Below, in pieces: positions 24 through 20,667 of a stretch of 20,667 nucleotides of DNA. Below the pieces are notes generated by a model. The model had not been told where the DNA came from. It searched no databases and saw only the letters and a list, made by a program, of their open reading frames with translations. Position 1 is the stretch's first letter. Every line of letters begins with the position of its first letter. The DNA comes from Candidatus Rifleibacteriota bacterium (lineage in GTDB: Bacteria > Muiribacteriota > Ozemobacteria > Ozemobacterales > Ozemobacteraceae): NCBI GenBank assembly GCA_905236675.1, contig CAJOND010000051.1, forward strand, positions 1 to 20,667, read 5' to 3'. The position numbers were made by a program, and so were the translations under genes.

Positions 24-93
24 TTGCAGGACTAAATGCAATTTCTATTTTTGCAGAACTAAACGCAATTTAACTTGCATTTACTTTTGCAAT
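24..93. promoter_or_regulatory. Array of three palindromic TTGCA-N8-TGCAA sites (24-41, 51-68 with one mismatch, 76-93) upstream of the first CDS; candidate operator array for a dimeric transcription factor
   Basis: Seen directly: ttgcaGGACTAAAtgcaa, ttgcaGAACTAAAcgcaa, ttgcaTTTACTTTtgcaa; start-to-start spacing 27 and 25 bp. The first two copies extend to a 21-nt direct repeat (19/21 identical). Confidence 0.45.
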
Positions 94-186
94 TAACAAA
101 GAACAATTAGACTAATTTTAACTCTTGCTATGTGTACGAAAAATAATTATAATTATAAGACAATCTTACATTTTGGGGTAAAAATT

Positions 187-1296
187 ATGTTTGATTTAAA
201 AAAGACAATAATAACTTTAACTATAATTGGTATCGTTGCTAATCCTGTTTCTGCTAAAAAACAGAAAGAAGAAAGCGAATTCAAAAAATGGATAAAATAC
301 AATTATGAAGCTGAACATTATCAACAGGACGGTTTAAAATTAGTAGACCCGAAAGGTGATGCTTACCTTATTCGTAAAATTGATACTGTTCCCATGAAAC
401 TGTTGTCTTCTTTAGTTAAGAGTTCTTACCCCCAGGCTGAAATAGAAAAAGAAAAACAGCTTGCAGAACTTGAATCATCCATGAAAAACGGAACTGTTCC
501 TTATCAAATAGGTAAAACTGTTCCAATAGATGTTGACAGACTAATCAATAAATGCCGTCATATTATGCGTCATTACTATCCTGATATTACCCCAACAATG
601 GGTGAAGAACATGATTGGTCTCCAGAAGCTAAAAAATACCTTCTTTATGGTTTCTGGCATCGCTTAGGTCGTCATATTTTTGGTAAACAAAAAGAATTTC
701 CTAGTCCTTTATTCTTGAGAAGCAAACTTTTCTTATGCCTAGCTTGCGGTTGGACTTCACGCTATTGTGTAACTGGTCAGGAAGAAGCATTAAAAGAACG
801 TCTAATGAAATATCCTGATCGAAGAGTTCAAATTCACCATATGTTTGCAGAAAGTTACAGATTAAATAAAGGTAATATTTATCTGACTTTCTTGACCTGC
901 GAAAATATTCTTGCCGGTGACCCATACAGAGAAGACCGTGAAAACGATCCACTTCAGAAAAAACTTGCTTATATCCGCCATGATTCTAAAGATATAGGCG
1001 ATAACTATGGTGCCTGGTATCATTTCTTTGGTATTTCTCTTTATGGTTTAATTAGAGCTGGCGTAGTCAGTCGCTCAGTTGCCGAAATAGAAAGTGTTGG
1101 TTCTTTCTTCTTGGAAGGAGCCGACAAACAGGAAGATTACATAAACCGCTATGGTGCTATATTTGGCAAAAAATTCAAAAAAATGATGAAAAAAGAAACT
1201 TGGAAAGTTCCTCTTCAATCAACTGACAGAACAGATTATATGCTTCCAAATGTTCTGCAGCCAGATAATAAAAACTACAAGAAGGCTTCTTTCTGA
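187..1296 (+). CDS. Hypothetical secreted protein (Sec signal peptide, cleavage after VSA)
   Basis: ORF track 130..1296. The internal ATG at 187 gives MFDLKKTIITLTIIGIVANPVSA|KK, a classic n-h-c signal peptide, and has a GGGG-containing SD 9 nt upstream. An alternative start is at 130. No recognisable catalytic motif. Confidence 0.6.
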   Translation: MFDLKKTIITLTIIGIVANPVSAKKQKEESEFKKWIKYNYEAEHYQQDGLKLVDPKGDAYLIRKIDTVPMKLLSSLVKSSYPQAEIEKEKQLAELESSMKNGTVPYQIGKTVPIDVDRLINKCRHIMRHYYPDITPTMGEEHDWSPEAKKYLLYGFWHRLGRHIFGKQKEFPSPLFLRSKLFLCLACGWTSRYCVTGQEEALKERLMKYPDRRVQIHHMFAESYRLNKGNIYLTFLTCENILAGDPYREDRENDPLQKKLAYIRHDSKDIGDNYGAWYHFFGISLYGLIRAGVVSRSVAEIESVGSFFLEGADKQEDYINRYGAIFGKKFKKMMKKETWKVPLQSTDRTDYMLPNVLQPDNKNYKKASF

Positions 1297-4182: not shown

Positions 4183-4317
4183 TTATCTTTCTATATTTAT
4201 CTGAACTAAGCGTTCTGGGAAGAACACTGTAGTGAATAGAGGTTTCGAGACGAACCAAACAATGCCGTCATAGAGATCGTTAGTTTTTATTTTGTTTGCT
4301 TTATTTATATTTTTCAT
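4183..4317 (-). CDS. Candidate 44-codon upstream ORF / leader peptide (MKNINKANKIKTNDLYDGIVWFVSKPLFTTVFFPERLVQINIER)
   Basis: ATG at 4317 with an AAGGAG SD 9 nt upstream. Its TAA stop (4183-4185) sits 3 nt before the AAGGAGG SD of the 431-aa gene. Not in the ORF track (below its length cutoff). It could be a chance ORF in AT-rich DNA. Confidence 0.2.
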   Translation of the reverse strand: MKNINKANKIKTNDLYDGIVWFVSKPLFTTVFFPERLVQINIER

Positions 4318-4858: not shown

Positions 4859-5755
4859 TTGAGTAATTTTGCAAGTGAAAACAAAAGATTTTCAGGTTTA
4901 AAAGCTGAACATTTTCAGCACAAATGGGATCAGCAAGCAGTTACTGCATTGCAAGCAATACCAGGTTTCGAATTTCTTGTTAAAAAGCTTATGGAAATAG
5001 GTTTTGAACAGTTTTTTAGAATAACCAATCTTGCCAGTAATGTTCATGTTACAGGTAAAATGCTACCTGATCTGCAAGATAAGCTAAAAACAGCTTGCGA
5101 AATACTTGATGTTGCTATTCCTGATTTATATATTAGCACCAACCCTGTTCCTAATGCTTTTACATATGGCGACACCAAACCTTTTATCGTTCTCACTTCA
5201 GGATTATTAGAATCAATGAGCGAAGAAGAAATACTATTCGTTCTAGGTCATGAAATAGGTCATATTAAATGTGGTCATGTTTTATATAAAACTATGGCAA
5301 GACACTTTGCTCTTGTTCTAGAAATAATTGCCAATGCAACATTCGGTTTTTCTCGCATATTAGGCGCTGGACTAGAAATGGCAATATATGACTGGGAAAG
5401 AAAATCCGAACTTTCTGCTGATAGAGCAGGTCTTATAGTTACTCAAAGTTTGCCTATTGCTAACAGAAGTTTTATGAAAATGGCAGCCTCAGCACCAAGT
5501 ATATATTCTCAAATGGATGAAAATGAATTTCTAAAACAGGTTGAAACCTATGAAGACGCATCTGAAGCCTCTTTTATAAATCAAGCATATATTGCTCTAA
5601 TAACAGCTAAGATGTCTCATCCATTCACTATTCTAAGAGCTAAAAAGCTGGTTGACTGGGTTAAAAAAGGTGAATTCACTCAGGTTACAGGGATAACTGT
5701 AGAAGAAGTCCAAGCCAGATTCGCCACAAAAAAACCAGATACCAAAGAACAGTGA
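4859..5755 (+). CDS. M48-family (HtpX/Ste24-like) zinc metallopeptidase, apparently soluble
   Basis: HEIGH (HExxH) in LGHEIGHIKCGH plus a downstream ExxSADRAG third-ligand-like motif. TTG start with a GGGGG SD 9 nt upstream. Confidence 0.6.
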   Translation: MSNFASENKRFSGLKAEHFQHKWDQQAVTALQAIPGFEFLVKKLMEIGFEQFFRITNLASNVHVTGKMLPDLQDKLKTACEILDVAIPDLYISTNPVPNAFTYGDTKPFIVLTSGLLESMSEEEILFVLGHEIGHIKCGHVLYKTMARHFALVLEIIANATFGFSRILGAGLEMAIYDWERKSELSADRAGLIVTQSLPIANRSFMKMAASAPSIYSQMDENEFLKQVETYEDASEASFINQAYIALITAKMSHPFTILRAKKLVDWVKKGEFTQVTGITVEEVQARFATKKPDTKEQ

Positions 5756-6057: not shown

Positions 6058-6714
6058 CTATCTCAGGTTTAGCTTCAATAATTCTTGAGCAAACTTCATC
6101 TGTAATAATCCCTTTAAATAAATATGGATCAGCATCGGATAAAATAACATATTTTTTTTAAATAATTGGTTTTTAATATTATATGAATCTTGGTTCCTTA
6201 TTTTTTTTAACTTTTTTGATCCCGAAGATAAAAGACAATATGTAAAATAGCCTATTATTAAAATAACTAAAAATGAGATAAGAGAAAACAGATATGCTTC
6301 AATTTTTCCTTGAAATAACGCAAAAAAACAAGGTATTGAATAAAATAATATCAAACATAATAAAATACTACCTATTGCAATATCTACATTGGCAGCATTT
6401 TTAGCTGAAATAATTGTAGTAATTTCAAAATCAGGGTAATTATCTTTCATTTTAAGGGAACCAAATGATATCCAACGAGAAGTATCATTTTTCCTATGTG
6501 TAATATGATAGTATTCGATTATACAATAATCATAACCCTCTTTTTGACCAGTTATAATGTTACTATCCTTCATCTCATCTTTATAATCTAGATTAAATAC
6601 ATCTTTTAATGATTCGGCCCCGTATACATAATTAGCATTCATTTCTTTACATAATTCTCTTACAGCTTCAATCCTTTTGGTTACCATTTCCTTAGAACCA
6701 TCGAAAAGTCCCAT
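6058..6714 (-). CDS. Hypothetical membrane protein (about 110-aa cytoplasmic N-domain, two TM helices, basic C-tail)
   Basis: ORF track. AGGAGA SD upstream of the ATG at 6714. The 3' part contains A9 and A8 homopolymer runs on the coding strand. Confidence 0.5.
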   Translation of the reverse strand: MGLFDGSKEMVTKRIEAVRELCKEMNANYVYGAESLKDVFNLDYKDEMKDSNIITGQKEGYDYCIIEYYHITHRKNDTSRWISFGSLKMKDNYPDFEITTIISAKNAANVDIAIGSILLCLILFYSIPCFFALFQGKIEAYLFSLISFLVILIIGYFTYCLLSSGSKKLKKIRNQDSYNIKNQLFKKNMLFYPMLIHIYLKGLLQMKFAQELLKLNLR

Positions 6715-7488: not shown

Positions 7489-8598
7489 ATGGGTTTTTGG
7501 GCTAATCAAACTAGATCTGTTATAGAATGGAAAGATGCATCTCCAGATGTTTTAATATGGCGTTGGGATGGTACTAATGATGAATTGAAAAATGGTTCAA
7601 AGCTTATAGTTAATCCCGGTCAAGCTGCAATTTTCTTGTATGAAGGCGAAATAAAAGCTATTCATGATTATCCAGGAAAATTTGAACTAGGCACTGGCAA
7701 CGTTCCTTTCCTTACTACCTTAAAGAATATTATGCAGAATTTCACTTCTGAACATAAAGCTAATATTTATTTCGTAAGAACAACCGAATTCGTTGACCAG
7801 AAATGGGGCACTACTGGACCAATCAAATACGACGATCCAAAATACAGATTCCCAGTAGGAATGATTGCACACGGCAATTTCTCTTTCCATATTACCGATA
7901 TAAGAAACTTCTTTGTAAATTTCTCAAGCAATACCGATGTAGTTACCATTGCAAGCATTAGAAAGAACATTATCGGTCGTATTCTTGCTCCAATGACTTC
8001 AGTTTTCGCAAAGAGCGGCTACAGTTATTCAGAAATAGACAGTCATATCCAGGAACTTTCTGACACTCTTTCTCAGGCAGTTGCTCCAGACTTTGCAAAA
8101 CTTGGTTTCGAAATGTCTGATTTCAGAATCGAACGCACTGACTTCGATGAAAAGACTCATGAAAGAATAGATAAGATTGCTGATAAAATGGCTGAAGCTC
8201 AAGGCGATGCGGCAAAAGTTAATGAATTTGCGAACATCAACAATGCTGGTATAGCTAATTATGCAACAATGGAACAATTAAGAGCTCTTAATTCTGCCGC
8301 AGCTAATCCAAATGGTATGGCTGGAATGGGTGTAGGCATGGGCTTTGGTGCTGGTCTTGGTGCTGGTATGGGCTTTGGTGGCATGAATATGATGAATAAT
8401 CAAATGCAGCAGCCACAAGCAGCTCCTCAAGTTCCACAGGTACCAACCGTAGCTTGCAAAGCTTGTGGTGCTCAAATCAAAGCTACTGCAAAATTCTGTC
8501 CAGAATGTGGCAAACCTCAAAATCAGGTTCAGAAATGCCCAGAATGTGGCGCTGAAGTAGAAGGCAAATTCTGCCCAGAATGTGGTCACAAAATGTAA
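7489..8598 (+). CDS. SPFH/band-7 domain protein with a Gly/Met-rich linker and C-terminal triple zinc ribbon (COG4260-like)
   Basis: N-terminal SPFH-like region; low-complexity GMAGMGVGMGFGAGLGAGMGFGG linker; C-terminus has CKACG...CPECG...CPECG...CPECGHKM zinc-ribbon motifs. Confidence 0.65.
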   Translation: MGFWANQTRSVIEWKDASPDVLIWRWDGTNDELKNGSKLIVNPGQAAIFLYEGEIKAIHDYPGKFELGTGNVPFLTTLKNIMQNFTSEHKANIYFVRTTEFVDQKWGTTGPIKYDDPKYRFPVGMIAHGNFSFHITDIRNFFVNFSSNTDVVTIASIRKNIIGRILAPMTSVFAKSGYSYSEIDSHIQELSDTLSQAVAPDFAKLGFEMSDFRIERTDFDEKTHERIDKIADKMAEAQGDAAKVNEFANINNAGIANYATMEQLRALNSAAANPNGMAGMGVGMGFGAGLGAGMGFGGMNMMNNQMQQPQAAPQVPQVPTVACKACGAQIKATAKFCPECGKPQNQVQKCPECGAEVEGKFCPECGHKM

Positions 8599-8632
8599 AT
8601 AATTAGTTATTTCCTTTAGATTGAATTTTTTA

Positions 8633-8662
8633 ACTCCTCTGAAAACCAGAGGAGTTTTTTTA
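8633..8662 (+). terminator. Rho-independent terminator after the SPFH gene
   Basis: actcctctg-aaaacc-cagaggagt followed by TTTTTTT. Confidence 0.75.
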
Positions 8663-8820
8663 CTCCTCTTCCCTCCTGCTTTCTGCTCTTTCGCTCTAAG
8701 AGGCTTTAGCCTCGTCTGCTCTACTGCTCTTCGCTCTTTTGCTCTCTTCTATCTTCAATCTTCAATCTCCATATTTGGTCTTATATCTTATATCTTCCTT
8801 CTTCAATCTTTTATCTTAAA
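8661..8820. repeat. About 160-nt polypyrimidine (CT-rich) low-complexity tract with short tandem motifs (GCTCT, TCTTCAA, TCTTATA)
   Basis: Seen directly; strong strand purine/pyrimidine asymmetry; contains CCTCC and UCCC-type motifs. Confidence 0.6.
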
Positions 8821-8884
8821 CATTGCAAAATCATATGCCGATAGTTAATATGAAATAGATAAATTTTAGGATGGAGCCGCAAAC

Positions 8885-17446: not shown

Positions 17447-20164
17447 ATGAAATTTAATGGTTTAACAGATAAAGAAGTATTAGAAGCAAGAAAAAAATAC
17501 GGAAGCAATGTGATTCCTGATTCTGAACCAACAACATTCTGGGAAGAATTCTTAGAAACATTTTCTGACCCAATGATAAAAATATTACTGTTTATAGTCA
17601 TATTAATGACTATAATGTATTTTTTTGGCAAGTCAGCAATATATGAGCCTATTGGAACGGCAATTGCAATTCTTATCGTAGCTTTTGTTTCTGCTAAAAC
17701 CGGGGTTGCAAGCGACACAAAATATAGAGAACTTAAAGATAGCGTCAAAAAAGATACTTGTAAAGTTTATAGAAACGGTATCGTATCTGTTATAACCGTT
17801 GATGACGTAGTTGTTGGTGATAAAGTGCTATTGCAGGCTGGTGACAAAGTTCCAGCAGATGGAATATTGATTGATGGCTCTATTTCTGTTAATAATGCTG
17901 TTTTAAATGGAGAAGCAGAAGAATGTTATAAAGATGCAGCAACAGAAGCTTTGGTTTTGAGTGATGAAATAACAGGAGACACTTTCGTAGACAAACATTC
18001 GGTATTCAGAGGTGCCGTATTGTTTGATGGCACAGGTGTCTTGGATGTTCAAAAAGTTGGATTAAAAACCATGATGGGCAAAATGGCTGAAACAATGCAA
18101 GCAGAACAGCCTGATTCCCCATTAAAAGTTAAACTGGCAAAATTAGCAAAACAGATTTCTAATTTCGGTTACATCGGTGGTATTTCTATAGTTCTAATCT
18201 ATATGATTTATTTCATAAAAATCGGTGGTGGCCTTGAAAAATACTTTTTTAATGATTGGTCTTTAATATTGGGCAATTTTTTGGAAGCATTTTCTCTAGC
18301 TGTTGTAATTATAGTTTGTGCCGTTCCTGAAGGTTTGCCTTTGATGATTTCTCTAGTTCTTATGCAAAATACAGGCAAAATGCTTGCACATAATGTATTG
18401 GTAAGAAAAGACGAAGGTATCGAAACAGCAGGTTCCTTGAATATTTTGTTTAGTGATAAAACTGGCACTATTACCAAAGGAATCTTAGAAGTTGTAGAAT
18501 TTTTCACTGCTGATGGAAAAACTATACCTCTAAATGAAATAAGGAATTATTATGAATTAGAAAAATTATTACATCTTTCGATTGGTAAAAACTCTTTATC
18601 AATGTTTGATGGTGAAGGCAGAGTTATAGGCGGTAACGCTACAGATCAGGCTTTAATGAATTTTATAGGCAAAAAATGCTATGACGAATTAAATAGTCAC
18701 AAAGATTATAATGTAGGTAGTTCTCAAGCATTTAATTCTGCCAATAAATTCAGCCAGGCTTATTTACCCGAACAAAAGAAAGTATTCTATAAAGGTGCTC
18801 CAGAAAGATTCTTGGCTGTAGCTAAAAAAGCATTAAACAATAAGGGCGAAGAAATAAATTTGAATATCGATGAGCTCAACAAAAAAATCGATTCTCTAGC
18901 GAACAATTCTATGAGAGTTTTGGCTTTTGGTTATTCAAAAAAAGAAATGACTCATAGTCAAATAAATGATGATGTTGTAATTATCGGGCTGCTAGGAATT
19001 AAAGACTCGGTTAGAGCAGAAGCAGTAGAAGCAATTGCTGCTGTAAAAAAAGCAGGTATTCAAGTTGTAATGATTACTGGCGATAGATTAGAAACAGCCG
19101 TAGCTATCGCTAAAGATGCTTCTCTTATTAATAACAACGATGATATAGCTTTAACTTCGATGCAGTTAAGCAAGATGTCTGATGACGAAGTTAAAGAAAT
19201 AATACCTAAAATTAGGGTTATTGCTCGCGCTTTACCAACAGATAAATCAAGAATGGTAAGACTTTGCCAGGAAAAGAATCTTGTAGTAGGTATGACAGGC
19301 GATGGAGTAAACGATTCTCCTGCTTTGAAACTAGCAGATGTTGGTTTTGCCATGGGCAGTGGAACAGAAGCAGCCAAAGAAGCTGGCGATATAGTTATTC
19401 TTGATGATAATTTTAAATCAATAAAAGATGCTATATGGTATGGTAGAACAATTTATAATAACATTTTAAAGTTCTGTCAGTTTCAGCTTGTAATCAATGT
19501 TGGTGCTGTTTTTGTGAGTACTATTGCTTTGTTTTTCAAAATAAACAAACCTTTAACTGTTGTCCACCTGCTTTTTGTAAATCTTGTTATGGATAGTCTC
19601 GGAGCCATAATGCTTGGAAATGAACCTGCCAAAGATTCTTATATGCTTGAAAAGCCGAGACAGAGAGATGAAAGCATTATTTCCCATTATATGCTGACAT
19701 ATATTATAATAATGGCAGTATGGTTTACTACTCTTAGTATACTTTTCTTGAAATCAAGCAATATACTAAGCAGTGACTTTTTAAATAGTTTAATGCCTGG
19801 AGCAGACGCTAAATCCATGGGTATTCAGATAGCTAGTGCTTATTTTGTATTGTTTATCTGGGCTGCATTATTCAACGGCTTTAATGTCAGAGATAAAGGT
19901 TTTAAAATCTTTGAAGGCCTAAATGAAAACAAAAGCTTCTTGCTTGTATTCTTTTATATTGTATTAATACAAGCTTTGATTATTAATGCTCAGTTATTAC
20001 CTTTTGAATGGGCTAAGAAAATCGGTGATATGTTCAGTTGTACACCTTTTTCTTGGCAGATGTGGCTCTATGTAATAATTCTTGCAACAAGCATGATTCC
20101 TGTAAACATGCTTTTAAAGGTTATTTTAAAAAACAAACCAGCTAATGAACAACCAGAAAACTGA
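17447..20164 (+). CDS. P-type cation-transporting ATPase, type II (Ca2+-ATPase-like)
   Basis: DKTGTIT phosphorylation motif, KGAPE, MITGD, GDGVNDSPALKLADVGFAMG, and a PEGLP motif in TM4 typical of Ca2+ pumps. AGGAG SD. Confidence 0.85.
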   Translation: MKFNGLTDKEVLEARKKYGSNVIPDSEPTTFWEEFLETFSDPMIKILLFIVILMTIMYFFGKSAIYEPIGTAIAILIVAFVSAKTGVASDTKYRELKDSVKKDTCKVYRNGIVSVITVDDVVVGDKVLLQAGDKVPADGILIDGSISVNNAVLNGEAEECYKDAATEALVLSDEITGDTFVDKHSVFRGAVLFDGTGVLDVQKVGLKTMMGKMAETMQAEQPDSPLKVKLAKLAKQISNFGYIGGISIVLIYMIYFIKIGGGLEKYFFNDWSLILGNFLEAFSLAVVIIVCAVPEGLPLMISLVLMQNTGKMLAHNVLVRKDEGIETAGSLNILFSDKTGTITKGILEVVEFFTADGKTIPLNEIRNYYELEKLLHLSIGKNSLSMFDGEGRVIGGNATDQALMNFIGKKCYDELNSHKDYNVGSSQAFNSANKFSQAYLPEQKKVFYKGAPERFLAVAKKALNNKGEEINLNIDELNKKIDSLANNSMRVLAFGYSKKEMTHSQINDDVVIIGLLGIKDSVRAEAVEAIAAVKKAGIQVVMITGDRLETAVAIAKDASLINNNDDIALTSMQLSKMSDDEVKEIIPKIRVIARALPTDKSRMVRLCQEKNLVVGMTGDGVNDSPALKLADVGFAMGSGTEAAKEAGDIVILDDNFKSIKDAIWYGRTIYNNILKFCQFQLVINVGAVFVSTIALFFKINKPLTVVHLLFVNLVMDSLGAIMLGNEPAKDSYMLEKPRQRDESIISHYMLTYIIIMAVWFTTLSILFLKSSNILSSDFLNSLMPGADAKSMGIQIASAYFVLFIWAALFNGFNVRDKGFKIFEGLNENKSFLLVFFYIVLIQALIINAQLLPFEWAKKIGDMFSCTPFSWQMWLYVIILATSMIPVNMLLKVILKNKPANEQPEN

Positions 20165-20185
20165 GCCAAGCTTTGCTTGATTGAA

Positions 20186-20215
20186 AAAACGCCTGATTAT
20201 ATCAGGCGTTTTTTC
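20186..20215 (+). terminator. Rho-independent terminator after the P-type ATPase
   Basis: aaacgcctgat-tat-atcaggcgttt followed by TTTTT. Confidence 0.8.
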
Positions 20216-20262
20216 GTAGTTGGTAGTCGGTTTTTGTCGTCCGCAAGTGGCGCTACTTCATA

Positions 20263-20287
20263 CCAAGGGCATCGCTGATGCCCTTGG
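20263..20287. repeat. Very stable GC-rich hairpin (11-bp perfect stem ccaagggcatc/gatgcccttgg, 3-nt loop)
   Basis: Seen directly; not followed by a T-run on either strand. Confidence 0.5.
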
Positions 20288-20370
20288 GGCTTATAGTATC
20301 GTCCTGTCGGACGAGTTCTTTTATAGAGTTCTAGCCCTAGGGTGTCTTCGACACCTAGGTTATTAATGTA

Positions 20371-20539
20371 ATGTCCTGCAGGAGCTTGTCCGAAAACCAG
20401 GTTTTTAGCCTAAAATTAGCTTATTCTAATTATTTTAAAATCCCCCTTAATCCCCCTTTACGAAAGGGGGTAAGGACAATTACCAGTGCACTAAAATTTT
20501 AGTGATTTTCTAGTTTTCGGACAACCTCCTGCCGGACAT
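20371..20539. repeat. TIR-bounded about 169-bp non-coding element (27-bp terminal inverted repeats, 25/27 matching) with internal palindromes; MITE-like or structured RNA
   Basis: Left arm atgtcctgcaggagcttgtccgaaaac (20371-20397) matches the reverse complement of gttttcggacaacctcctgccggacat (20513-20539). Internal hairpins are cccccttt-acg-aaaggggg and cactaaaa|ttttagtg. Confidence 0.45.
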
Positions 20540-20639
20540 ATTCTACGCTATCGCTAAATAAGGTCGACTTGTTGTGATAAACTAAAATTGTAACATTGTT
20601 GTCCGACAGATAAAATTATCGTAAGGAGTTAATTTATTA

Positions 20640-20667
20640 TGCCGCAACAATATGAACCAGAATTCAA
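20640..20667 (+). CDS. Start of an unidentified CDS (MPQQYEPEF...), truncated by the window end
   Basis: ATG with an AAGGAG SD 10 nt upstream; only 9 codons visible. Confidence 0.35.

Follow-up and report, generated by a model that had tools for sequence, protein, structure and literature searches.

Genomic context of the spacer

The window, that is, the whole stretch of 20,667 nt that was analysed, is an ordinary chromosomal stretch encoding a CLC channel, an M48 peptidase, an ankyrin protein, an SPFH protein, UgpC and a solute-binding protein. According to the gene calls made on syntenic contigs (contigs compared with the window are designated by L numbers), it also encodes mannose-type PTS genes, HPr, enzyme I and, at 17447-20164, a PMCA-type Ca-ATPase. 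The source names of proteins in the same 90% clusters show that the organism is a Candidatus Riflebacteria, from gut and rumen metagenomes. The ATPase gene is followed by an intrinsic terminator, by several short palindromic modules and by a unit of 169 bp bounded by inverted repeats, which is the subject of this study (Table 1). The unit had been described as lying between a strong terminator and the next gene start. The terminator is real and, since it has an A-run upstream as well as a T-run downstream, probably bidirectional; the start at 20640, however, turned out to be part of an insertion, which is described below.

Table 1. Features of the spacer downstream of the Ca-ATPase gene; positions refer to the window unless a contig is named.
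Feature	Position	Strand	Description
Ca-ATPase intrinsic terminator	20183-20215	none	perfect 15-bp stem, A-run before, T-run after
GC-rich hairpin block	20216-20294	none	48% GC; CCAAGGGCATC-gct-GATGCCCTTGG at 20263-20287, preceded by GCGCTACTTCATA
Module E	20295-20377	none	hairpins TCGTCC-tgtc-GGACGA and CCCTAGGGTGTC-ttc-GACACCTAGG; ends in GTAATGTCCT
Left arm, ATGTCCTGCAGGAGCTTGTCCGAAAACCAG	20371-20400	none	10-nt palindrome TCCTGCAGGA; recurring TGTCC motif twice
AT-rich interior	20401-20509	none	32% GC; contains tandem repeat, hairpin H and 16-bp palindrome
Right arm, CTAGTTTTCGGACAACCTCCTGCCGGACAT	20510-20539	none	inverted-repeat partner of 20371-20400
Module B, start, TTCTACGCTATCGCTAAATAAGGTCGACT	20541-20569	none	dispersed repeat, cut by the insertion; full module at L001 5279-5372
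Strain-specific insertion, left end, TGTTGTGATAAAC...	20570-20667	+	absent from L001; contig ends within the insertion
ATPase-kdsB gap	L001 4903-8255; L012 6277-7356; L044 11645-11791; L010 12731-12813; L013 10165-10166; L043 18893-18947

Three Riflebacteria relatives carry an ATPase 87-90% identical to that of the window, and the other nearest among the 120 homologues listed were all about 68-70% identical; those of the latter that had a source name were all Clostridia (Lachnospiraceae, Ruminococcaceae, Agathobacter, Flavonifractor). Such Clostridia-like neighbours hint at horizontal acquisition of the gene inside the gut community.

Palindromes occur elsewhere in the window as well. A perfect one of 28 bp, TTATTTTATCAAAGCTTTGATAAAATAA, lies at 1365-1392, between the first ORF (130-1296) and the CLC channel gene (1462-2745). 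Right after the SPFH gene (7489-8598), two overlapping and mutually exclusive hairpins, AACTCCTCTG-aaaac-CAGAGGAGTT and AGAGGAGT-tttttt-ACTCCTCT, were noticed at 8632-8669; they may act as terminator and anti-terminator, or together as one bidirectional terminator. Several spacers of these genomes also bear, at gene ends, CT-rich repeats of a decamer-like type (TCTTCAATCT and variants; window 8745-8823 and 1430-1453, L001 5562-5644, L026 at about 7520-7560, L028 at about 7530-7590), which are another dispersed repeat family. The GC-rich perfect hairpins cluster in a few variable spacers; the other perfect hairpins are mostly of the terminator-like A-stem-T type, and a few lie within genes.

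Structure and composition of the 169-bp unit

The preliminary description of this DNA had reported arms of 27 nt, at 20371-20397 and 20513-20539, that are reverse complements at 25 of 27 positions. We recovered exactly this inverted repeat with its two mismatches, and found that both arms can be extended to 30 nt (27/30 pairing), which leaves 109 nt in between. The 27-nt left arm recurs in reverse complement only once in the window, at 20513-20539, and none of 100 dinucleotide shuffles yielded such a pair. By length, the inverted repeat ranks second in the window, and it is the best among the longer ones.

In the interior, the hairpin CCCCCTTT-acg-AAAGGGGG (hairpin H, 20452-20470) is present with a stem of 8 bp, but it is not made of G and C only, as had been stated, since five G-C pairs are joined by three A-T pairs. 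Its supposed half copy is a real sequence that is better described as part of a tandem direct repeat of 10 nt, in which AATCCCCCTT occurs twice (20439-20458). The perfect 16-bp palindrome CACTAAAATTTTAGTG was found at 20489-20504 as described; palindromes of this kind are unremarkable per se, three being present in the window against a shuffle mean of 0.7 and maximum of 4. The palindrome within the arm, TCCTGCAGGA, would give a stem of only 3 bp, and the arms are without a convincing REP hairpin.

A GC content far above the window average had also been claimed. With 39.6% against 34.3%, the excess is modest (arms 53%, interior 32%); the GC-rich stretch proper is the spacer immediately upstream, at 20216-20370, with 48%. 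The RNA fold predicted for the 169 nt has an energy of -67.7 kcal/mol on the plus strand and -76.5 kcal/mol on the minus strand (z -8.6 and -9.8 against shuffles), and the predicted single-stranded DNA fold -38.3 kcal/mol (z -8.9 against shuffles). In its predicted shape, the unit is a single long stem bearing small internal hairpins.

The statement that the unit has no coding capacity is not literally correct, as an ORF of 43 codons starts at the ATG of the left arm (seen in the identical L001 copy, 5109-5240), but we saw no sign of coding. In an Rfam scan of the whole window at the gathering score, which had been proposed as a check, no family matched; at E<=10, 20100-20667 and the L001 spacer gave only terminator look-alikes and one meaningless match to a miRNA model. 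Neither tRNA nor tmRNA genes were found, and a T-run is absent 3' of either arm. The minus strand carries a weak match to a promoter at 20524-20496 (TTGTCC-17-TAAAAT); the number of promoter-like sites, three against a shuffle expectation of 1.2 +/- 1.2, is near chance. No target-site duplication was seen when the boundaries were shifted by up to +/-8 nt, except for TATT at asymmetric boundaries, a match at chance level in AT-rich DNA.

The insertion at 20570

The ENA contig L001 carries an identical ATPase gene and has no mismatches with the window over 5307 nt up to 20569, after which the two diverge completely. Beyond this point, L001 continues with about 370 nt of further hairpin-rich spacer and then with the 3' end of a convergent gene for a 764-aa Tim44/TerB-like protein. 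Copies of module B elsewhere continue as ...CTAG.TCGGTCACC, like L001. The window thus has the interrupted form, with an insertion starting at 20570. The insertion begins with TG and holds an RBS (AAGGAG, 20625-20630) and the ORF with its ATG at 20640, 71 nt in (MPQQYEPEF...). The ORF is consequently not a resident gene that the 169-bp unit could regulate.

The insertion is most likely an IS element on which the assembly broke, and it may be IS3-like, judged from its TG end and the N-terminal Y-x-P-E-F motif, which resembles the N-termini of OrfA proteins. Searches with its DNA end, the RBS-ATG stretch and the back-translated N-terminus found no copy in viral contigs, BLAST found none in any compared locus, and a distant-mode search of the plasmid collection with 20200-20667 gave no match. 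Its terminus, TGTTGTGATAAAC, is unrelated to that of the 169-bp unit, ATGTCCTGCAGG. The insertion also holds TTGTCCGACAG, an echo of the TGTCC motif in the spacer hairpins.

Orthologous spacers downstream of the ATPase gene

We compared the relatives with an ATPase about 87-90% identical (L010, L011, L013, L043) and found no such spacer there: kdsB directly follows the ATPase gene after 84 nt (L010/L011), 3 nt (L013) or 56 nt (L043). In L012, 15 nt that are shared right after the stop codon lead directly to the counterpart of L001 5375-5596 (91% identity). The 457-nt block of L001 4918-5374, which holds the terminator, small hairpins, 169-bp unit and module B, is absent; in place of the gene for the 764-aa protein, L012 has a DUF4160/DUF2442 gene pair. 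L044 has the same 15 nt after the ATPase gene and then yet another sequence. The insertion site is therefore just 3' of the 15-nt GCCAAGCTTTGCTTG, and, as it is found in at least four different states among the relatives, we regard it as an insertion hot spot. The content of the ATPase-kdsB gap varies by strain from nothing to the DUF4160/DUF2442 pair, the Tim44/TerB-like gene or other hairpin-rich DNA.

The 169-bp unit is part of an insertion that is about 3.35 kb long and specific to the lineage, and its confinement to this insertion excludes a conserved cis-regulatory RNA. On these alignments, the unit is a lineage-specific addition and no conserved regulatory region. The idea that it is a leader or riboswitch for the gene starting at 20640 fails on three counts, namely the lack of an Rfam match, the location of the downstream ORF in a strain-specific insertion and the absence of the unit from the orthologous spacers. 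A comparative alignment of the orthologous region, which had been suggested as a further check, gave no conservation of the unit among the relatives with an 87-90% identical ATPase.

Neighbouring repeat modules

The modules on both sides of the unit have counterparts at other loci. Module E is 74% identical to L043 20212-20293 and has a reverse match to L043 20317-20401, and the GC-rich hairpin block upstream of it is similar by eye to L043 20315-20359 (CACTACTTCAATAACCTAGGGCATCgaaGATGCCCTAGG). Homologues of module B are located in L004 (about 50-225, minus strand) and in L026/L027 (about 7633-7750, minus strand), and the palindromic block of L001 5375-5600 matches L012 and L028/L029. These matches show the window spacer to be pieced together, as a mosaic, from short palindromic repeat modules.

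In L043, a nested imperfect palindrome of 290 nt with six small GC-rich hairpins (20154-20445; z -13.5 for the single-stranded DNA fold) sits between ybaB and a giant Big_5 gene. This palindrome is an inverted doublet of the module on the left flank of the unit in the window. The end of module E, GTAATGTCCT, overlaps the outer stem of the 169-bp unit. The L043 copy of module E ends in ...TTAATAAAGTAATGTCCT-tt-CGGACATAT, whereas the window has ...TTATTAATGTAATGTCCT, then 154 nt, then CGGACATAT. In other words, GTAATGTCCT and CGGACATAT pair over 6 bp around a loop of 4 nt in L043, and around about 154-155 nt in the window. This comparison indicates that the outer 6-7 bp of the putative terminal inverted repeat are the stem of the small hairpin of the adjoining module. 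By this alignment, the outer stem of the unit belongs to a neighbour, so that the ends of the repeat are not clean element ends. Two readings fit L043: either a palindromic unit came to lie in the loop of a REP-like hairpin, or the centre was lost symmetrically, which left the short form.

Many of the small hairpins have GTA... and ...TAC at their sides (window 20296-20315 and 20368-20376; L043 20212-20231, 20307-20327 and 20380-20401). As a mark of REP elements, such GTAG-like heads beside the hairpins are only suggestive. We also noticed a motif, GGATTGCCACG followed by a short hairpin and CG(A/C)AATGACG, in two unrelated spacers (L004 at about 4255-4300, L012 at about 6545-6590). The hairpin itself is not the same in the two, and the motif may represent one more small repeat family.

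Partial homologues of the unit at other loci

The 169-bp unit occurs once in the window. To look further, we used an exact pattern that fits both arms, GCAGGAGNTTGTCCGAAAAC, which was run on 596 Gb of species-representative genomes and on JGI metagenomes and gave eight and nine matches, respectively. The real ones among them are L004, from a goat Riflebacteria MAG, and L023, which represent the same locus. The other matches we attribute to chance, as they lie inside coding regions of unrelated, mostly GC-rich organisms; that in L008 looks, by eye, like aroB (dehydroquinate synthase) in antisense, and three that extend 5-8 nt beyond the pattern were taken as coincidence because of the conserved genes in which they lie. 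In viral contigs, the arm pattern had two matches, both by chance.

The L004/L023 locus contains one arm (29-33 nt, 97-100% identity; L004 4414-4446, L023 756-788) and about 35 nt of the adjoining interior, and the second arm is absent. The solo arm is flanked by unrelated housekeeping genes, an epimerase gene and an AAA_14/DUF4143 gene. It agrees with the right arm at both variable positions and extends into the outer flank of that arm (ATAT.CTA). Since the solo arm of L004 includes the outer ATATGTCC, it was the composite unit that was copied. L004 was also considered as a full-length autonomous copy and rejected, because the 4 kb between its arm and module B consist of housekeeping genes (TPR, FGE-sulfatase, epimerase) with no second arm.

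Further Riflebacteria DNA was collected through protein look-ups (about 358 kb in total, partly redundant) and searched with nhmmer. L025 7935-8055 (E 2e-7) has a diverged arm (7935-7962) followed by interior sequence with the hairpin CCCCCTTT (7963-8055). Hairpin H with its flanks is identical at 23 of 23 positions in L028 7683-7705 and in L029, and H-like variants were seen at L001 5378-5394 and L012 6451-6465. At the site of the L025 copy, the same genes flank module B and CT-rich repeats in L026 and L027. This second hypervariable spacer, between the TPR/polysaccharide deacetylase and M48 peptidase genes (L025 7914-8377, L026 7522-8322, L027 7495-8295), measures 465 nt in L025 and 802 nt in L026/L027, with a wholly different content of repeat modules.

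These matches show that parts of the 169-bp unit are dispersed, diverged repeats common to related genomes. No second full-length copy was found in the window, in the approximately 358 kb of related loci or, with the exact arm pattern, in the 596 Gb of reference genomes and the JGI metagenomes. The few copies in these data indicate that the family is low-copy or strongly diverged, unlike classical REP/REPIN populations. The earlier suggestion of a REP/BIME- or MITE-like repeat is therefore upheld in kind, by the diverged parts at unrelated intergenic sites in related Riflebacteria, but not in the strict sense of a MITE.

Discussion

In our preferred reading, to which we give a probability of roughly 0.6, the unit represents a full-length inverted doublet from a family of non-coding palindromic repeats with few copies (REPIN/MITE/BIME-like), and it lies in a mosaic cluster at an insertion hot spot. 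It would be composed of two repeats of about 30 nt, inverted around a hairpin-forming spacer of 109 nt. The doublet could have spread, or been assembled, via single-stranded hairpin intermediates like REP doublets (REPINs) or via recombination between modules; a cut-and-paste mechanism of the TIR/TSD transposon type would be a less likely route than these two. The solo arms in other genomes may then be decaying half-copies, and the short hairpin of L043 could be either the uninterrupted ancestral form or a product of symmetric central deletion. The present-day effect of the unit would be passive: where read-through from the convergent 764-aa gene (minus strand) or the ATPase gene carries it into the 3' untranslated RNA, its very stable stem-loop could shield the 3' end of the mRNA or stop the read-through, and as DNA the unit may be a fragile or recombinogenic palindrome. 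A RAYT/IS200-like or other transposase was not seen in the compared loci, and no PF01797-type gene was present among their called genes (two syntenic neighbourhoods).

In the REPIN literature, inverted REP doublets form hairpins and singlets decay (Bertels & Rainey, PMC3337134, PMC3116915), and long palindromes arise by symmetric excision of the REPIN centre (PMC3337134). The 169-bp unit is like REPINs and REP/BIME clusters in that two short inverted repeats surround a hairpin-forming spacer, the whole forms a near-perfect long hairpin, and its position is extragenic, here between the ATPase stop codon and the convergent gene or the probable IS. It also resembles them in having solo repeats that look like decayed remnants, in the lack of a target-site duplication and in being clustered with other palindromic units in a mosaic, and L043 has, at the homologous position, a short palindrome similar to the products of symmetric central excision. 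Unlike REPINs of Proteobacteria, the unit is 169 bp long instead of about 90-110 bp, and its arms lack a convincing REP hairpin with GTAG head; furthermore, the copy number is apparently low, with few matches in related genomes, no RAYT was seen in the compared loci, and the phylum Riflebacteria is unrelated, with no similarity between the sequences.

Other families can be compared as well. Among bacterial MITEs, Correia elements (Neisseria), RUP (Streptococcus pneumoniae) and ERIC/IRU (Enterobacteria) resemble the unit in their described properties: they, too, are non-coding imperfect palindromes of 100-200 bp with TIRs of about 26-30 bp, intergenic, often co-transcribed and variable in presence between strains. 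The unit differs from them in having no TA or other target duplication and no parent IS with matching ends, and in showing no sign of many copies. The spacers are like the NIMEs of Neisseria and the BIMEs of E. coli in being built from a few short modules in variable order and orientation, in adjoining variable genes and in differing between close strains. They differ from both in that the module sequences are unrelated, and no dRS3-like bounding repeat and no IHF- or gyrase-binding motifs were identified.

A bolder version would be that the modules make up a previously undescribed system of nested palindromic repeats in gut Riflebacteria, in which one hairpin element enters or leaves the loop of another, mobilised by a hairpin-specific enzyme (HUH-type or other), and thereby drives the turnover of cargo at hot spots such as the ATPase-kdsB junction. 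We consider this unlikely. If loop-targeted nesting were an active process, it would point to a hairpin-specific mobilisation enzyme in this lineage, which is speculative.

Instead of a mobile repeat, the unit might be a functional structured RNA specific to this locus, either a 3'-UTR stabiliser or processing site or a small RNA, that acts with the convergent Tim44/TerB-like gene or the ATPase gene. REP- and ERIC-type repeats are known to play such a part. The very high predicted stability on both strands (z -8.6 and -9.8) would fit such a role, and so would the position in L001, where the unit lies between convergent genes and, seen from the minus-strand gene, precedes the only strong terminator, so that the transcript of this gene would have to run through all of the spacer until it met the bidirectional terminator. 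We hold this reading to be quite unlikely, however, as there is no Rfam family, the unit is not conserved in orthologous spacers, the homologues elsewhere are half-units unable to form the long stem, and no T-run follows either arm.

A classical MITE, that is, a deletion derivative of an IS with a DDE transposase that is mobilised in trans through its 27-30-bp TIRs and has many copies in the source genome, appears rather improbable. The anatomy would suit it well: the unit is 169 bp long and non-coding, has an AT-rich interior between long TIRs (30-nt arms with 27/30 pairing) and is intergenic, a homologue of its arm occurs at another locus of a related genome, and what is probably an active IS lies 30 nt away in the window strain. 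On the other hand, no target-site duplication was seen at or close to either end, the TATT match being asymmetric and at chance level, and the neighbouring insertion has unrelated termini (TGTTGTGATAAAC compared with ATGTCCTGCAGG); no IS with matching ends was found. Moreover, a second complete copy was not found in the reference genomes, the JGI metagenomes or the approximately 358 kb of related DNA, all other homologues are one-sided, and the outermost 6-7 bp form the hairpin of the adjoining module in L043.

Just as improbable in our view is an idiosyncratic spacer, in which a local quasi-palindrome, produced for instance by template switching or inverted duplication during repair, is immobile and without function. 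The single complete copy known in the reference genomes, the JGI metagenomes and the approximately 358 kb of related loci would agree with this, as would the rearrangement hot spot with at least four states among the relatives and the tandem AATCCCCCTT duplication, a sign of local slippage. Arm and interior sequences are nevertheless present at three unrelated loci in other genomes, with 70-100% identity, and a purely local origin does not account for this recurrence.

An inverton, in which a site-specific recombinase would flip the 109-bp interior and so switch a promoter, is highly improbable: invertons of gut bacteria typically have imperfect inverted repeats of 20-30 bp around 100-300 bp, and a weak minus-strand promoter-like site (TTGTCC-17-TAAAAT, 20524-20496) is present, but no recombinase gene lies in the neighbourhood, the orientation is the same in both independent assemblies (the window and L001), the count of promoter-like sites is near the shuffle expectation (3 against 1.2 +/- 1.2), and a promoter in the unit would give only antisense RNA, since in L001 it lies between the 3' ends of convergent genes. 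We also rejected a retron msr-msd, as there is no reverse transcriptase and L001 continues downstream with more spacer and the convergent Tim44/TerB-like gene, and an integron attC site, as neither the outer ends (ATGTCC...GGACAT) nor the inner ones (GAAAAC/GTTTTC) fit RYYYAAC...GTTRRRY.

The most likely reading of the 169-bp unit is thus that of one more REP/MITE-like palindromic repeat, here from Riflebacteria, a phylum known only via metagenomes. Repeats of this kind break assemblies, produce spurious small ORFs and, to a scan, look like structured RNAs. The repeat cluster to which the unit belongs marks a recombination hot spot at which the cargo genes differ between strains.
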